A DNA stretch of 39,605 nucleotides from a virus, in the IMG/VR virus record IMGVR_UViG_3300025121_000009. One strand, given 5' to 3'. Below are positions 2,989-19,257 of the stretch, one piece after another. Under the pieces are notes generated by a model. That model was not told the origin of the DNA, ran no database searches, and saw only the letters and a list, made by a program, of their open reading frames with translations. Position numbers and translations under genes: made by a program. Each line of letters begins with the position of its first letter. Within the stretch, counting starts at the first letter, position 1.

Positions 2989-3304
2989 TGTTTTTACTTT
3001 GTTTAATGTTATCTAACTCTTTCTCAATATCATCTACTAAAACATACTCTAATGTGACCCTATATCCGTGTTCCTCTTTTTCTATTTTGTAATTAGTTTT
3101 CTTCTTTAGTACCTCCTCTAACACCTCCCTTTTTGCTTCTTGTCTAACCTCGTTTATCTTTTCAGTCATATGGTCTGCAAGTTCCCCTATATTTACTCCA
3201 CATAGAGGACAGTTCATATGTTTTTGTTCGTCTGAATGGTAAATAGCAATCATCTTTATTAAATGTTCTGACCACTCTCTAATCTCTTTCTCCTGCTGTG
3301 TCAT
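2981..3304 (-). CDS. Hypothetical protein (107 aa)
   Basis: ORF overlapping the next gene by 8 nt. It has a single CPLC motif and nothing else recognisable. Confidence 0.5.
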   Translation of the reverse strand: MTQQEKEIREWSEHLIKMIAIYHSDEQKHMNCPLCGVNIGELADHMTEKINEVRQEAKREVLEEVLKKKTNYKIEKEEHGYRVTLEYVLVDDIEKELDNIKQSKNNG

Positions 3305-3331
3305 TTTGTGTCCTGTTTAATGTTAGATAGT

Positions 3332-3700
3332 TTAATCAATATCATCTTTAACAAATCCTGATATATCTATTGTAATCTCTGGTCTTCCCTCTTGATTAAC
3401 AATTATTGATAAACTACTAGAATAATACCCATTTTGAGAATTGTAACAAGGTACTGCATAAGTACCATTCAACACTATTCCTAATAACGGATTGCCTGTT
3501 ATTCTAATCTTCCTAAACTCCTCTTCCATTATTCCTGTATCCGATAACTGCTCCCAGTCTGCATACACATACTCACAGCAGTCTTGGTCATGGTAATCGG
3601 TTATTTTTGTACCATCACTAAACTCTAAACCCTCTTTGTCAAGCTTAATTAGCTTAACTGGTTTATCAAACTCAATTGTAAATATTCTCTTCTCTTCCAT
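3332..3700 (-). CDS. Hypothetical protein (122 aa) immediately downstream of rtcB
   Basis: Contains the motif HDQDCCEYVYADWEQL. It shares the same 16-nt upstream box as rtcB, at the same distance from the ATG. Function unknown. Confidence 0.55.
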   Translation of the reverse strand: MEEKRIFTIEFDKPVKLIKLDKEGLEFSDGTKITDYHDQDCCEYVYADWEQLSDTGIMEEEFRKIRITGNPLLGIVLNGTYAVPCYNSQNGYYSSSLSIIVNQEGRPEITIDISGFVKDDID

Positions 3701-3709
3701 TCTCTGTAA

Positions 3710-3725
3710 TGATTAAATTAAACTA
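3710..3725 (-). promoter_or_regulatory. Conserved box TAGTTTAATTTAATCA, 25 nt (box start to ATG) upstream of gene 3332..3700
   Basis: 16-nt exact match with 4914-4929. Confidence 0.4.
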
Positions 3726-4904
3726 ACCTTTAACAACAGCTAGCGGCTTTAACTCTACCAGTATCTTTGTTAAATCTTTCTGGTTTTCCATAACAACATC
3801 TATATCCTTATATGCTTGAGGAGCTTCTCCAAAGTCTAGATTACCTTTTCTATCCTTTCCCCACCTACCGTATACAACCCCCTCCATAGATTTGTCTGCC
3901 TCTTCTAGAGTTATGTTTCTACTTGCTTCCATTCTACCCATTTTCCTACCCGCTCCGTGTGAACAACTCATAAAGGATTGAACATTTCCCAGTCCCTCTG
4001 TTATATAGGACTTAGTACCCATAGACCCTGGAATAATTCCAACCTCTCCTAGCCTTGCACTTGTAGCACCTTTTCTATGAACCCATACATTCCTACCCAT
4101 GTGGTTTTCCAGTCTTGCGTAGTTGTGTGCTATGTTAATTATCTCTTCTGCTTTATAATCGCCAAGAGTATCAGCTACAACACCCATGACCCTCTCCATC
4201 ATCAGTTTCCTATTCGCAAATGCAAAGTCCACACAATACTGCATTTCCTGTATATAATCTTGACCCTCTTTAGTGTCGGTAGGTAGATATGCTAAGTCTT
4301 GTTCTACAACATTTGGTATATACCACTTCTTAGCTAATTCAATAGCTTTTGCATTGTAGTAATCACACACTTGCTTACCAAGATTTCTACTACCAGAATG
4401 TATCATTATCCACAATTCACCCTCGCTACTTCTTTGTAGTTCTATAAAGTGATTACCACCACCAAGCGTTCCTATTTGTGTAAGGGCGTTGTCATACTCC
4501 TGAGCTACAACGACACCATTAGCACTTTTGCTATTACTAAATGGCATTAGGCTCTCCTCTTGTTTCTTCTGGTGGTGTGCAAACCCAACTGGTACAACCT
4601 TTCTTATTCCACCCAATGTTTCTTTTAATTGTTCCTGCGTAATATCCTCTGTTTTTATATGAGTATTAACTACACACATACCACAACCTATATCTACGCC
4701 CACCATATTAGGGCTAATAACATCAGCAAGAGCTACAACCCCACCAATAGGCATTCCGTACCCTTGATGACTATCTGGCATTACTGCAACCCACTTGTAT
4801 ACAAAAGGTAGGTTAGCAATATTTTTAATCTGCTCCATAGCACCATCCTCGATATCTTCTAACCATAGTTTTACCTGTATCTTTTCAGTATTTATTTCTT
4901 TCAT
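3723..4904 (-). CDS. rtcB: RtcB-family 3'-phosphate/5'-hydroxyl RNA ligase
   Basis: 393 aa carrying RtcB hallmark blocks: DSHQGYGMPIGGV, GGGNHFIELQ, IHSGSRNLG, AHNY, HRKGAT, IIPGSMG and SCSHGAGR. Confidence 0.9.
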   Translation of the reverse strand: MKEINTEKIQVKLWLEDIEDGAMEQIKNIANLPFVYKWVAVMPDSHQGYGMPIGGVVALADVISPNMVGVDIGCGMCVVNTHIKTEDITQEQLKETLGGIRKVVPVGFAHHQKKQEESLMPFSNSKSANGVVVAQEYDNALTQIGTLGGGNHFIELQRSSEGELWIMIHSGSRNLGKQVCDYYNAKAIELAKKWYIPNVVEQDLAYLPTDTKEGQDYIQEMQYCVDFAFANRKLMMERVMGVVADTLGDYKAEEIINIAHNYARLENHMGRNVWVHRKGATSARLGEVGIIPGSMGTKSYITEGLGNVQSFMSCSHGAGRKMGRMEASRNITLEEADKSMEGVVYGRWGKDRKGNLDFGEAPQAYKDIDVVMENQKDLTKILVELKPLAVVKG

Positions 4905-4913
4905 CTTCTCTTT

Positions 4914-4929
4914 TGATTAAATTAAACTA
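4914..4929 (-). promoter_or_regulatory. Conserved box TAGTTTAATTTAATCA upstream of rtcB, preceded by AAGGAG
   Basis: Exact 16-nt repeat of 3710-3725. The GGAG ends exactly 25 nt before the ATG. Confidence 0.4.
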
Positions 4930-4946
4930 CTCCTTAATAACTCATG

Positions 4947-5211
4947 ACGGACATCCTCTTACTACTTTTTGGTGTGCTTCTTCCAAAAGGGTTTAATTAC
5001 TACCCACAAGAAGCGTAGTTACCATTTAGAGGTCTGTCCGTTTGAATTATCAAAGAGCTAATAACCTGTATGAGATACTCTGGGAACTTACTACTGAGTT
5101 GGCAGTGCCGTTCTTCACTGCTTCTTCTAGGATAGTTGTTTCCCTCGCTCTCCATTATGCTACTAAGATGATAGTAAGTCGCACTTCGCATTCTCACCAA
5201 AGTACCTCATA
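4947..5211 (-). ncRNA. Candidate structured ncRNA made of two adjacent domains, each closed by a long stem; class unknown
   Basis: Domain A (5069-5211): an 11-bp closing helix pairs TATGAGGTACT with AGTATCTCATA. Nested inside are a 9-bp helix (5172-5180 with 5085-5093) and the hairpin GCAGTG/CACTGC (5102-5121). Domain B (4947-5041): ACGGACA..CCTCT pairs with AGAGG..TGTCCGT. Nested inside are GCTTCTT/AAGAAGC and GGGT/ACCC. The region has no convincing CDS. Confidence 0.4.
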
Positions 5212-5310
5212 CAAATTATTAAAAGAACTGGTAGGTGCAACTGTTTTATTCTTAGTATTCAACAGAACCCAACAAATCTTTGTTGTAGCCTTTATTTAAC
5301 ACCCACCATA

Positions 5311-5382
5311 TTGCAGGGGTTAGAATTGAACTAACTACTCTTAGGCTATGAACCTAAAGTGCAACCGTTACACTTCCCTGCG
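5311..5382 (-). tRNA. tRNA with CAU anticodon (Met; initiator-like C1xA72 mismatch; Ile2 not excluded)
   Basis: A hand fold gives a full cloverleaf. Acceptor CGCAGGG/CCCTGCA with C1 opposite A72. D arm GTGT-AACGGTT-GCAC. Anticodon arm TTAGG-TTCATAG-CCTAA. Variable loop GAGTA. T arm GTTAG-TTCAATT-CTAAC. Discriminator A. No CCA is encoded. Confidence 0.8.
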
Positions 5383-5485
5383 ATGTTACCTGTGCCTTAG
5401 CTCCAGACTTAGCGTGGTGTCGTTTAAGAATTGCTATAATTAAATGTCCACATCCAGAACCAGGGTACAAGTAACACCCTAATTT

Positions 5486-6181
5486 TTAATTCATTTCTAA
5501 AAGAGCTTTTTGTACATTACCCATCCAAGTTGTAGTGTGGTCGTTCCCTGTATATCTCTTGGCTTTCTCGTAATTAGTAGCTACATCGCTATAATACTTT
5601 CCAATACCCCTACAAATAACCTTTGCCATTTCCTCTTGGCTTGGATCATAACTTCTATTTCCGTTATAAAAATACCCAAAATAGTTTGTGTCTCTGTTTG
5701 TATTTTTTCCCATCCCTGTCTCTGCTACACTTATTGCAACTACAAGTTTAAGTGTTGGTATATCACAATAATTTCTCAAGTGTTTAATGTAACTTGTGTC
5801 ATACTCCCCACCATACCTTGTAATATATTTTTCAATATTATCTGGAAGGGGCTGTGGTGCCTCTAAAACCTCTTGTTTTTGTGGAGTGGTCTGTTGAGCC
5901 ACAGGGGACACCTCTCTAATTTCTAGGGGCACTACAGGGGCTTGGGTAATAGTTTGAGTAGTCGCCTGTACTTGCCTTTGCTCGTTTGTGGTTATCCAAC
6001 CCTTGTCTACTAGCAAATCTAGTAAAACATATATCGCTAGAATTAGTAAAATAAGTACTAACACTCTCCTAGCTATAACCTCTCCTCTTTTTTGTCCGTC
6101 AAAGAGATCAACACCCATAACGCTACCAACAACCTTATTTCTAAGTCTGCTAGTCTTTTCTTTTAAATTAATTACCTTCAT
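5486..6181 (-). CDS. Membrane-anchored protein with a possible glucosaminidase-like (peptidoglycan hydrolase) C-terminal domain
   Basis: N-terminal TM segment VLVLILLILAIYVLLDLLV. The C-terminal block AISVAETGMGKN..TNYFGY resembles the ALESGWG..NNLFG signature. Based on weak motifs only. Confidence 0.4.
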   Translation of the reverse strand: MKVINLKEKTSRLRNKVVGSVMGVDLFDGQKRGEVIARRVLVLILLILAIYVLLDLLVDKGWITTNEQRQVQATTQTITQAPVVPLEIREVSPVAQQTTPQKQEVLEAPQPLPDNIEKYITRYGGEYDTSYIKHLRNYCDIPTLKLVVAISVAETGMGKNTNRDTNYFGYFYNGNRSYDPSQEEMAKVICRGIGKYYSDVATNYEKAKRYTGNDHTTTWMGNVQKALLEMN

Positions 6182-6213
6182 ATTTGTAATATAATAAGTT
6201 ATATATTGTTTAT

Positions 6214-6241
6214 ATCTTACACCCTATGTAACTGGTGTCAA
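6214..6241 (-). promoter_or_regulatory. Sigma70-like promoter TTGACA-N16-TAAGAT upstream of gene 5486..6181
   Basis: The minus strand reads TTGACACCAGTTACATAGGGTGTAAGATATAAACAATATATAAC. It shares a TAAACAATATA block with the promoter at 7326-7354. Confidence 0.5.
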
Positions 6242-6262
6242 GTGTTTAACAAATCTTATAGT

Positions 6263-6391
6263 AATGGGGGCTGGGAATTAAACCCAGCAACGGTTATTAC
6301 AGGGAGATATGAAACTCCCTTGCTAAGCTTTCGCTATAAAGCCACCCTGCTTATTATTTAGCAAACCCCTTACTCTTTTGGATACCCCATT
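6263..6391 (-). ncRNA. tRNA-like structured RNA (129 nt), not a canonical cloverleaf
   Basis: A 7-bp terminal stem, AATGGGG/CCCCATT, abuts a T-arm-like hairpin GCTGGG-TTTAATT-CCCAGC. Other hairpins: AGGGAG-TTTCATAT-CTCCCT (8-nt loop containing CAT), GCTTT-ATAGCG-AAAGC and TTGCT-AAATAATA-AGCAG. Confidence 0.35.
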
Positions 6392-6403
6392 TTAAGGAAC
6401 TAC

Positions 6404-6631
6404 TTAATCAGCTTCGTACAACTTTTTACTAAAGCTCTCTTCTAGGTCTTTCATAAACCTTATCTTAACCTCGTATAACTTTTCTTTCTGCTCAATAGTC
6501 ATTTCTTTGTTCAACTCTTTTTTCAATCTTTCTCTAATTCTCATTCTCTCCTCTAACCTACTAAACACACTTGGAGTGTCTTCTGTTAGATCCACTACCC
6601 TCACACCTTTAATTGGTCTTGATATTTTCAT
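6404..6631 (-). CDS. Hypothetical protein (75 aa)
   Basis: ORF packed 2 nt after the upstream gene. No motif. Confidence 0.5.
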   Translation of the reverse strand: MKISRPIKGVRVVDLTEDTPSVFSRLEERMRIRERLKKELNKEMTIEQKEKLYEVKIRFMKDLEESFSKKLYEAD

Positions 6632-6633
6632 AT

Positions 6634-7083
6634 TTATAATTTGTTAAAGTAATCTGTTAAACCCAATATCCTAGCTCCTGCCTTATCAACAGGGTTGCCA
6701 TAGGTGTCTAAGTCTACCCACTTAAAATCTAGGTCGTAGAGAAACCTACCTATACCCCACTTAACAGCAGCTCTCTTAAAGGAATCACTAAACTCCCCCT
6801 TTTCTCCCTCAAATGGACTTGGTACCCCAGTGTCTTCTTTTGCTACCCACTCCCCACCTATTCTCAACTCAAGTTTACAAATAAGACTACCCTCTCTTCT
6901 GTAACTATCCCTCCAGTTTTCTATTCCAACTGCTCGGTCCAGTAAGTCCATAACATCTCTTGCGTCTATGTAAGCAACACATTGTGCTTTCTTTCCGTCT
7001 TTAGCTTTGCTTTGTATCTTCCACTTGTATGGAATTGCATAAGTAAGCTTTTCGGTTAATGTATATTCTTTTTTATTTTCCAT
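6634..7083 (-). CDS. Rad52/Sak-like single-strand annealing protein
   Basis: The block FSDSFKRAAVKWGIGRFLY with upstream ENWRDSY..L.L.IGGEW matches the Rad52/Rad22-type phage SSAP signature. Confidence 0.6.
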   Translation of the reverse strand: MENKKEYTLTEKLTYAIPYKWKIQSKAKDGKKAQCVAYIDARDVMDLLDRAVGIENWRDSYRREGSLICKLELRIGGEWVAKEDTGVPSPFEGEKGEFSDSFKRAAVKWGIGRFLYDLDFKWVDLDTYGNPVDKAGARILGLTDYFNKL

Positions 7084-7100
7084 CCTCTTGGTAATAAAAA

Positions 7101-7292
7101 TTATCTAACTATCTTGTAAACACGATTTAACATTTCTATTAAATCAAATAGATCATCAGCTGTTAGTGATAACCTAACCCCACCAAAGTCTATTGTGAAA
7201 TGCTTAAACCCCCTATCAACTACAAGTGTGAGTTCATCTCCGCCATACCTATTTTGTAGTATGATGGTCTTACTTTGTACTTGTTCTTTCAT
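7101..7292 (-). CDS. Hypothetical protein (63 aa)
   Basis: ORF downstream of the promoter at 7326-7354. Confidence 0.5.
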   Translation of the reverse strand: MKEQVQSKTIILQNRYGGDELTLVVDRGFKHFTIDFGGVRLSLTADDLFDLIEMLNRVYKIVR

Positions 7293-8331: not shown

Positions 8332-8348
8332 TTTTGCTTGGTCTTAAA

Positions 8349-8444
8349 TTAAATAGCCAAATAAGAGAGTTGGCGACCAAGCGTGGAAACCAACCCCCTT
8401 ATTTGAATATCTAACTTTGAAACATTTTGCTTGGTCTTTTTCAT
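8349..8444 (-). CDS. Possible 31-codon leader ORF in the 5' region of gene 7798..8331
   Basis: Encodes MKKTKQNVSKLDIQIRGLVSTLGRQLSYLAI. It has no SD and spans two of the three GACCAAGC/GCTTGGTC segments. Confidence 0.2.
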   Translation of the reverse strand: MKKTKQNVSKLDIQIRGLVSTLGRQLSYLAI

Positions 8445-11246: not shown

Positions 11247-11322
11247 TGCACCTTTTAAAAAAAATTAAACTAATCATCCCGAAAAACAACCCTAACGCAA
11301 TTATTAAATATATCCAATCCAT
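11239..11322 (-). CDS. Small TM peptide (27 aa, below the track cutoff)
   Basis: Encodes MDWIYLIIALGLFFGMISLIFFKRCNE. TAATG overlap with the peptidase stop. Confidence 0.35.
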   Translation of the reverse strand: MDWIYLIIALGLFFGMISLIFFKRCNE

Positions 11323-19220: not shown

Positions 19221-19257
19221 GTTTGTAATGTTAAACTAAAACCCTCGTGTATATATA

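Follow-up and report, generated by a model that had tools for sequence, protein, structure and literature searches.

Translation relies on a single tRNA without redundancy, the initiator tRNA, and bacterial toxins are known to target it. With a copy of its own, a phage can go on initiating when that of the host is destroyed or limiting. Counter-defence that combines phage tRNAs with RNA ligation is represented by T4, in which Pnkp and Rnl1 counter PrrC. In jumbo phages, tRNAs occur together with RtcB, Rnl and Ro-like repair sets (PMC7824862). Moreover, nuclease-insensitive phage tRNAs have been proposed, in a work whose Shigella/VapC analysis also reports that the phages generally avoid encoding tRNA-fMet (PMC10264068). 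In tRNA-fMet, the cut made by enteric VapC falls between A38 and C39, as stated in the part of PMC4105405 that cites Winther and Gerdes (2011). Phage genes for fMet-tRNA are already known, for example from the Schizotequatrovirus Vibrio phages, which have one in their core set of 26 tRNAs (bioRxiv 10.1101/2024.12.24.630238), and in the literature searched, phage initiator tRNAs as a class receive passing mentions only.

In cellular tRNA-fMet, the pairs G2:C71 and C3:G70 serve as determinants for the formylase and for MetRS (PMC5389676, PMC7949028), and A11:U24, reported for 100% of tRNA-fMet genes (PMC1635315), is said to aid formylation (PMC7949028, PMC1635315). Within the anticodon stem, G30 is crucial and G30:C40 represents the essential pair (PMC5389676). 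Silva et al. (2006, PMC1635315) report that 15% of tRNA-fMet genes have the arm AGG..CCU; such au/GC/GC initiators occur naturally in some mycoplasmas and in alpha-proteobacteria, and they initiate translation and sustain E. coli (Shetty et al., 2017, PMC5389676).

Here we describe a tRNA(CAU) gene from a viral DNA stretch of 39,605 nt, which is called the window in the following. With bacterial tRNA-fMet (E. coli metZWV/metY and the A4:U69 variant of Deinococcus, Meiothermus and Poribacteria) it shares the anticodon CAU, C1xA72, G2:C71, C3:G70, A73, G12:C23, G30:C40, G31:C39 and the 7/4/5/5 stems, and its acceptor stem is identical to the Deinococcus type. It differs from them in the pairs A29:U41 (G:C in the bacterial tRNAs) and U11:A24 (A11:U24), in the anticodon loop UUCAUAG (CUCAUAA), in A8 (U8), in the T loop UUCAAUU (UUCAAAU) and in its low-GC body. 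Exactly the same AGG..CCU signature is found in the au/GC/GC initiators that alpha-proteobacteria, chloroplasts and some mycoplasmas have (PMC5389676, PMC1635315), but these tRNAs are cellular, not viral, and have retained A11:U24 and the loop CUCAUAA. The Schizotequatrovirus gene is also a virus-encoded CAU initiator tRNA; however, it belongs to a full tRNA set in a large genome, whereas the tRNA described here is the only one in about 39.6 kb, lies beside rtcB and has a relaxed body. The likeness to phage counter-defence by tRNA and RNA ligase consists in the two genes being side by side and in an anticodon loop that departs from the host type at a known nuclease site. Unlike in the T4-type systems, the ligase is RtcB and not Rnl.

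The tRNA gene and its fold

The window contains a single tRNA gene, and all of its genes lie on the minus strand (Table 1). The full model of RF00005 (1-71) matched the 72-nt gene with 47.7 bits, compared to a gathering score of 29, and with an E-value of 2.6e-7 computed for the whole 39,605-nt window. The Rfam ends agree to the nucleotide with those of the initial annotation, in which the strand was left unstated. ARAGORN called a tRNA-Met(cat) as well, but with 74 nt at 5383..5310. Compared to the Rfam frame, its acceptor stem has an extra eighth pair, U(-1):A73, and the next base becomes the discriminator. The eight pairs are drawn because U(-1), immediately 5' of C1, is able to pair with A73. 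We rejected this 8-bp acceptor with a U discriminator, since the base after A73 is U in the window and G in the closely related phage G001, and we hence prefer the Rfam frame.

Table 1. Features around the tRNA(CAU) gene, with positions counted from the first nucleotide of the window.
Feature	Position	Strand	Basis or remark
RtcB 3'-phosphate/5'-hydroxyl RNA ligase, 393 aa	3723..4904	-	PF01139 full length, E 1.2e-116; PHROG 1075; Atlas clusters
Spacer between tRNA and rtcB	4905..5310	-	blastn: mostly non-homologous to G001 (366 nt, 4945-5310)
tRNA(CAU), initiator-type	5311..5382	-	Rfam, ARAGORN, own covariance models, fold z-score
5' leader of tRNA(CAU)	5383..5420	-	Conserved in alignment with sister phage G001
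ORF231, 231 aa, upstream of tRNA	5486..6181	-	Without family match
Sigma-70-like promoter match (candidate)	6214..6241	-	TTGACA, 16 nt, TAAGAT; 10/12

Both the Rfam alignment and our own parser recovered the canonical cloverleaf that had previously been folded by hand, with stems of 7/4/5/5 bp, U33, CAU, A37 and the T loop UUCAAUU. The acceptor end likewise has C1 opposite A72 and the discriminator A73, as had been annotated; C1xA72 is flagged as non-standard in the Rfam alignment and is unpaired in the RNAalifold consensus. It is followed by G2:C71, C3:G70, A4:U69 and G5:C68. Positions 8 and 9 are both A, and the D stem GUGU/GCAC contains U11:A24, G12:C23 and U13-G22. The anticodon stem (U27:A43, U28:A42, A29:U41, G30:C40, G31:C39) carries the 7-nt loop UUCAUAG, in which U32 and U33 precede the anticodon CAU and A37 and G38 follow it. 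The body of the tRNA is low in GC, and CCA is absent from the encoded 3' end. The cloverleaf is beyond chance: none of 200 shuffles folded as well as the gene, whose minimum free energy corresponds to a z-score of -3.97. Furthermore, compensatory changes were found at 12 of the 20 cloverleaf pairs among eight viral initiator-like tRNAs, that of the window included, and position 1:72 is never paired in them.

Identity of the tRNA

The exact acceptor end of the window tRNA, combined with UCAU, was searched in 185,579 species genomes, which gave at least 120 stretches. The real tRNAs among the listed acceptor-end matches are classic initiators with GGG/CCC arms, A11:U24 and the T loop UUCAAAU. 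Among the matches listed, initiators of Deinococcus, Meiothermus, Poribacteria, Campylobacter, Clostridiales, actinomycetes and further groups have an acceptor end identical to that of the window tRNA. Hence, A4:U69 in the place of G4:C69 represents a natural variant of the initiator acceptor stem, because it is found in bacterial initiators.

As a reference set, 56 unique CAU tRNAs from 25 diverse bacterial genomes were used. They form three clean groups, one each per genome, with 23 initiators, 12-13 elongator Met and 18 Ile2 tRNAs; 8 of the 23 initiators, which were also used for training, have the A4:U69 acceptor, as they stem from genomes reached through the acceptor-end scan. The 1:72 mismatch and the arm R29G30G31/Y39C40Y41 are each present in 23/23 bacterial initiators and in 0/30 non-initiators, and G12:C23 shows the same distribution (23/23 against 0/30 Met or Ile2). 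The window tRNA has all three. A11:U24 is equally discriminating (23/23 and 0/30) but absent from the window tRNA, which has U11:A24, an elongator-type pair as had already been noted. The RGG/YCY arm was also absent from 22 viral CAU tRNAs with a paired 1:72, which served as controls and likewise never showed three G:C pairs; together with the 30 bacterial non-initiators this amounts to 0/52. The rules of Silva et al. (2006) agree with the sampled discriminators, including G12:C23, R29G30G31/Y39C40Y41 and the 3:70 pair of Ile2 (PMC1635315).

In a strict sense, the three consecutive G:C pairs at 29-31:39-41 (3GC) are incomplete in the window tRNA, since A29:U41 precedes G30:C40 and G31:C39. The initial annotation was right in describing two of three G-C pairs, but taking this as a mismatch to initiators did not hold, because au/GC/GC is a natural initiator signature. 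It is found in 6 of the 23 sampled initiators (Prevotella, Gemmataceae, Novosphingobium, Rhizobium, Chthoniobacterales and Haloferula), and the relaxed arm, which includes the essential G30:C40, describes the window tRNA fully. The bacterial elongator Met tRNAs, on the other hand, combine a paired 1:72 with C11:G24 and U12:A23 in 12/12 cases, where the window tRNA has C1xA72, U11:A24 and G12:C23.

We built three covariance models, R1 for initiator, R2 for elongator Met and R3 for Ile2 tRNAs, as a surrogate for the isotype models of tRNAscan-SE. The window tRNA scored 56.6 bits with the initiator model, 46.9 bits with the elongator Met model and 45.1 bits with the Ile2 model; a preference of isotype models for elongator Met or Ile2, which had been named beforehand as the outcome speaking against an initiator, was therefore not seen with our surrogates. 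The margin of the initiator model is +9.7 bits, and it derives largely from the acceptor stem. For calibration, tRNAs outside the training set were scored. The initiator model was ahead by +1.5 to +27 bits for 22 viral tRNAs of the mismatch type, whereas for 17 viral CAU tRNAs with paired 1:72 its lead never exceeded 2.6 bits and it was mostly behind by 10-60 bits. The margin of the window tRNA is thus within the viral initiator-like range, in its lower half, and outside the range of the paired controls. The best reading of these data is that the gene probably encodes a functional initiator-type tRNA-Met of the phage. The au/GC/GC signature and the ranking of the models bear out what the initial annotation had suggested, and more strongly than it had been put there.

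Nevertheless, by its sequence the window tRNA is not a canonical bacterial tRNA-fMet. Besides U11:A24, the bases U32 and G38 deviate from the near-invariant initiator loop CUCAUAA, U32 being rather elongator-like. A8 in place of the near-universal U8 had been pointed out before and is a real departure, with 1/46 bacterial and 7/153 viral class members (among the matches listed) sharing it.

These features lead to the alternative that survives best, namely that the 1:72 mismatch is tolerated in a tRNA-Met which is only partly formylated and which mainly or also elongates at AUG. Such use has a parallel in mitochondria, whose tRNA-Met serves elongation too. Partial formylation is conceivable because U11:A24 together with U32 and G38 would weaken both formylation and P-site selection, and the window tRNA may be formylated in part and find some use as an elongator. 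Y11:R24 and U32 are elongator-type features, and the elongator Met score is still at 46.9 bits. Furthermore, the rate of formylation decides whether a tRNA-fMet also elongates, and A11:U24 assists formylation (reviewed in PMC7949028). However, the 1:72 mismatch, G12:C23 and the RGG/YCY arm were found in 0/12 sampled bacterial elongator Met tRNAs, true initiators have the very same acceptor stem, and a lead of the initiator model by 9.7 bits is unlike any control with paired 1:72. We regard a mainly elongating or dual-use tRNA as unlikely and prefer the initiator-type tRNA-Met.

A relaxed class of viral initiator-type tRNAs

The initial annotation implied that initiator-type tRNAs are rare in phages, and this was not borne out. 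Two scans of IMG/VR, one with the A4:U69 and one with the G4:C69 acceptor, each combined with UCAU, gave at least 118 stretches each and at least 230 viral loci among the matches listed. Counts for the class were made on 153 unique, well-folded viral members among the matches listed. Within this set, G30:C40 is present in 146/153 members, two G:C pairs in 102/153 and the full 3GC in 22/153; A29:U41 occurs in 49/153, A11:U24 in 75/153 and Y11:R24 in 54/153. G12:C23 was found in 100/149 members of the ARAGORN-parsed set, again among the matches listed. In 76 of 114 loci with a length of 8 kb or more, no tRNA other than the initiator-like one was present, and A38 is missing from 42% of the lone viral initiator-like tRNAs (both among the matches listed). 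The closest homologue among the matches listed (L383:4357-4428) shares the A8A9/GUGU D arm and has the canonical acceptor with G4:C69. Between the two tRNAs, 4:69 shows a compensatory change, with C1xA72 kept.

Every value of the window tRNA at 29:41, 31:39, 11:24, 32 and 38 falls inside the ranges of the viral class. Since Y11:R24, A29:U41 and non-3GC arms are frequent among the viral members, the apparent defects of the window tRNA are normal for its class. As far as can be read from the sequences, the class keeps the acceptor end, C1xA72 and G30:C40, and is relaxed at exactly these five positions, i.e. viral initiator-type tRNAs drift where cellular initiators are fixed. Canonical members located at contig ends are, in some cases, probably tRNAs of the host next to a prophage; their inclusion would only lead to an underestimate of the relaxation. 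This variation in nature is consistent with the laboratory result that singles out G30:C40 as the key pair. The window gene itself is ordinary, and with phage fMet-tRNA genes already known, the relaxation across the class, a testable pattern yielded by the survey, is the more interesting by-product.

In the scans, we also observed a family of 69-70 nt which combines an initiator acceptor end and CAU with a tiny D hairpin (GGGA-CGG-UCCC) and with CUCAUAC in an apparently oversized anticodon loop. It is present in at least 12 viral contigs (L168, L170, L185, L194, L196, L239, L257, L264, L267, L269, L273, L277) and in four bacterial contigs (L054, L072, L090, L122; Akkermansiaceae, Haloferula and Byssovorax).

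Genomic setting and linkage to rtcB

Matches to terminase, portal, tail-fibre and other proteins identify the window as a phage of about 39.6 kb. Searches by blastn and megablast with the tRNA region and with 25 kb gave no match among 50,697 phage records. The nearest virus record is the sister phage G001 (39,077 bp), in which the same tRNA is followed by rtcB and then by a tRNA-Pro(UGG) abutting rtcB. With Rfam at E<=5, the tRNA was the only hit over 3300-7200, and neither a Y RNA nor another family was detected. ORF231 gave no match in Pfam and PHROG; it probably heads the transcription unit of the tRNA and rtcB. The sole good sigma-70-like match upstream of ORF231, tRNA and rtcB is the one listed in Table 1. 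Shuffles gave more such sites, and we mention it as a weak candidate promoter that may serve as a lead only.

The tRNA is identical in 72 of 72 positions between the window and G001, at a background of 93.8% nucleotide identity (blastn); with p of about 0.01, this is modest evidence for constraint on the tRNA. The homology ends exactly at 5311, i.e. at the discriminator, and resumes at rtcB with 88.4%. Because it stops there and the spacer is mostly unrelated, the 3' end of the tRNA marks a mosaic junction. An attP site or integration remnant was considered and rejected, as the tRNA has its full length and no integrase was present among the ORFs scanned.

This setting could also point to a role outside of translation, with the tRNA acting as a nuclease decoy, as a partner or substrate of RtcB, or being a decaying gene kept as a recombination junction. 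The tRNA forms one block with rtcB, the homology to G001 breaks precisely at its 3' end, and A8, U21 and G38 are odd for a working tRNA. However, the cloverleaf is complete and the identity elements for MetRS and formylase are all intact, the gene is fully conserved in G001 in spite of the lower background, and the covarying stems of the class together with the near-constant G30:C40 (146/153 among the matches listed) indicate ribosomal selection. That the scanned ORFs include no integrase makes an attP remnant unlikely as well. We consider a non-translational role to be somewhat less probable still than the elongator alternative, and the initiator-type tRNA-Met remains preferred.

The next gene downstream on the same strand is rtcB, separated from the tRNA by 406 nt, which agrees with the definition of a phage RNA-repair island, namely an rtcB gene on the same strand as one or more tRNA genes and no more than a few hundred nt away. 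Among 43 viral rtcB loci, 11 have a tRNA or tmRNA within approximately 400 nt, mostly tRNA-Pro(UGG). Initiator-like tRNAs beside rtcB were found in three further contigs (L051, L084 and, with U1xU72, L020). In the stretches retrieved around approximately 230 viral loci found by the tRNA pattern, rtcB was absent, and the link to rtcB is not general among viral initiator-type tRNA loci.

Several other arrangements around rtcB were observed. A tRNA-Pro(UGG) lies 3-100 nt from rtcB in seven related viral contigs, G001 included; those with tRNA-Pro(UGG) abutting rtcB are L003 (4183-4256), L004, L005, L007, L009, L011 and L025. The window lacks such a tRNA-Pro, with only 22 nt (3701-3722) between rtcB and the next ORF. 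In two contigs of bacterial MAGs (L051:6290-7964 and L084:6305-7201), between 7 and 17 tRNAs, one of them initiator-like with CAU, are arrayed within a few kb of an RtcB homologue; both contigs probably stem from a prophage or phage and were binned into the MAGs. The viral contig L017 contains a tmRNA gene (1953-2298) approximately 700 nt upstream of rtcB. In an array of 23 tRNAs around rtcB, the CAU tRNA L023:126-199 has A1:U72 but A11:U24, and it scored 62.9 bits as initiator, 60.3 as Met and 53.2 as Ile2; with the initiator model slightly best, it may represent a weak-pair initiator variant. The CAU tRNA L010:4155-4227, which overlaps the end of rtcB, scored 77.7 bits with the Ile2 model R3, 65.4 with Met and 42.4 with initiator. 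Because this tRNA is of the Ile2 type, not all CAU tRNAs adjacent to rtcB are initiators.

Many phage annotations of tRNA-Met are in fact tRNA-Ile2 reading AUA. That the window tRNA could be one, with C34 converted to lysidine by the host TilS, is very improbable: CAU with A37, the pairs G30:C40 and G31:C39, which many Ile2 tRNAs have too, and the Ile2-like tRNA at rtcB in L010 would agree with it, but the window tRNA has C3:G70, A4:U69 and G5:C68, where bacterial Ile2 has G3 or A3 in 18/18 cases (G3:C70 in 17/18) and is described with G3/A3 and C70/U70, frequently with C4:G69 and C5:G68 (PMC1635315), so that C3:G70 speaks against this identity, and, moreover, it has the 1:72 mismatch, G12:C23 instead of U12:A23 and its lowest score with the Ile2 model.

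Possible function

From established identity rules (PMC5389676, PMC7949028), the initiator-type tRNA-Met is expected to be charged by the MetRS of the host via CAU and A73. In its charged form it would be formylated by the formyltransferase of the host and bind EF-Tu poorly, owing to C1xA72, which is unpaired, and to G2:C71 and C3:G70; A29-G30-G31/C39-C40-U41 should permit its passage through the 30S P-site and the IF3 checkpoint. In this way, it would supplement or replace the host tRNA-fMet during infection. As a less certain step, the tRNA and the adjoining RtcB might form an RNA island for "replace and repair". The differences from host initiators at or near the VapC cut (G38 for A38, U32 and A29:U41) could allow it to survive nucleases directed against the host initiator tRNA, and RtcB could reseal RNAs that have been cut.

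The initial annotation had proposed that the phage tRNA substitutes for host tRNA-fMet cleaved by VapC. This suggestion finds circumstantial support in the adjoining RtcB and in position 38, which lies at the A38|C39 site cut by VapC in tRNA-fMet and is G in the window tRNA. Extended to the class, lone phage initiator-type tRNAs might be widespread "nuclease-proof spare starters" that evade VapC-like toxins via positions 32, 38 and 29:41, in the present case teamed with RtcB; in a variant of this idea, the weaker formylation due to U11:A24 would yield a dual initiator/elongator Met tRNA. We put this forward tentatively, as an idea that has some chance of being correct but is more probably wrong. 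The viral class provides candidates for tests of nuclease resistance.

It had also been suggested that the tRNA boosts the translation of SD-less or leaderless mRNAs. The scarcity of SD motifs would be compatible with this and is the sole point in its favour: an SD-like 4-mer at -17..-7 was found in only 16 of 53 window ORFs. The same scarcity hints at a Bacteroidota-like host, and the Atlas neighbours of the window RtcB are viral or belong to Bacillota and Bacteroidota. The canonical arm GGG-CUCAUAA-CCC is shared by 95 of 101 Bacteroidota genomes, and therefore the phage tRNA would not be a simple copy of that of a Bacteroidota-like host; this constancy contrasts with the 42% of lone viral initiator-like tRNAs (among the matches listed) in which A38 is missing. 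Upstream of many start codons of the window, an A/T-rich box of the TTTAATTT type recurs, for example in the regions 3701-3730, 4905-4934, 8332-8360, 11247-11275 and 19221-19250.
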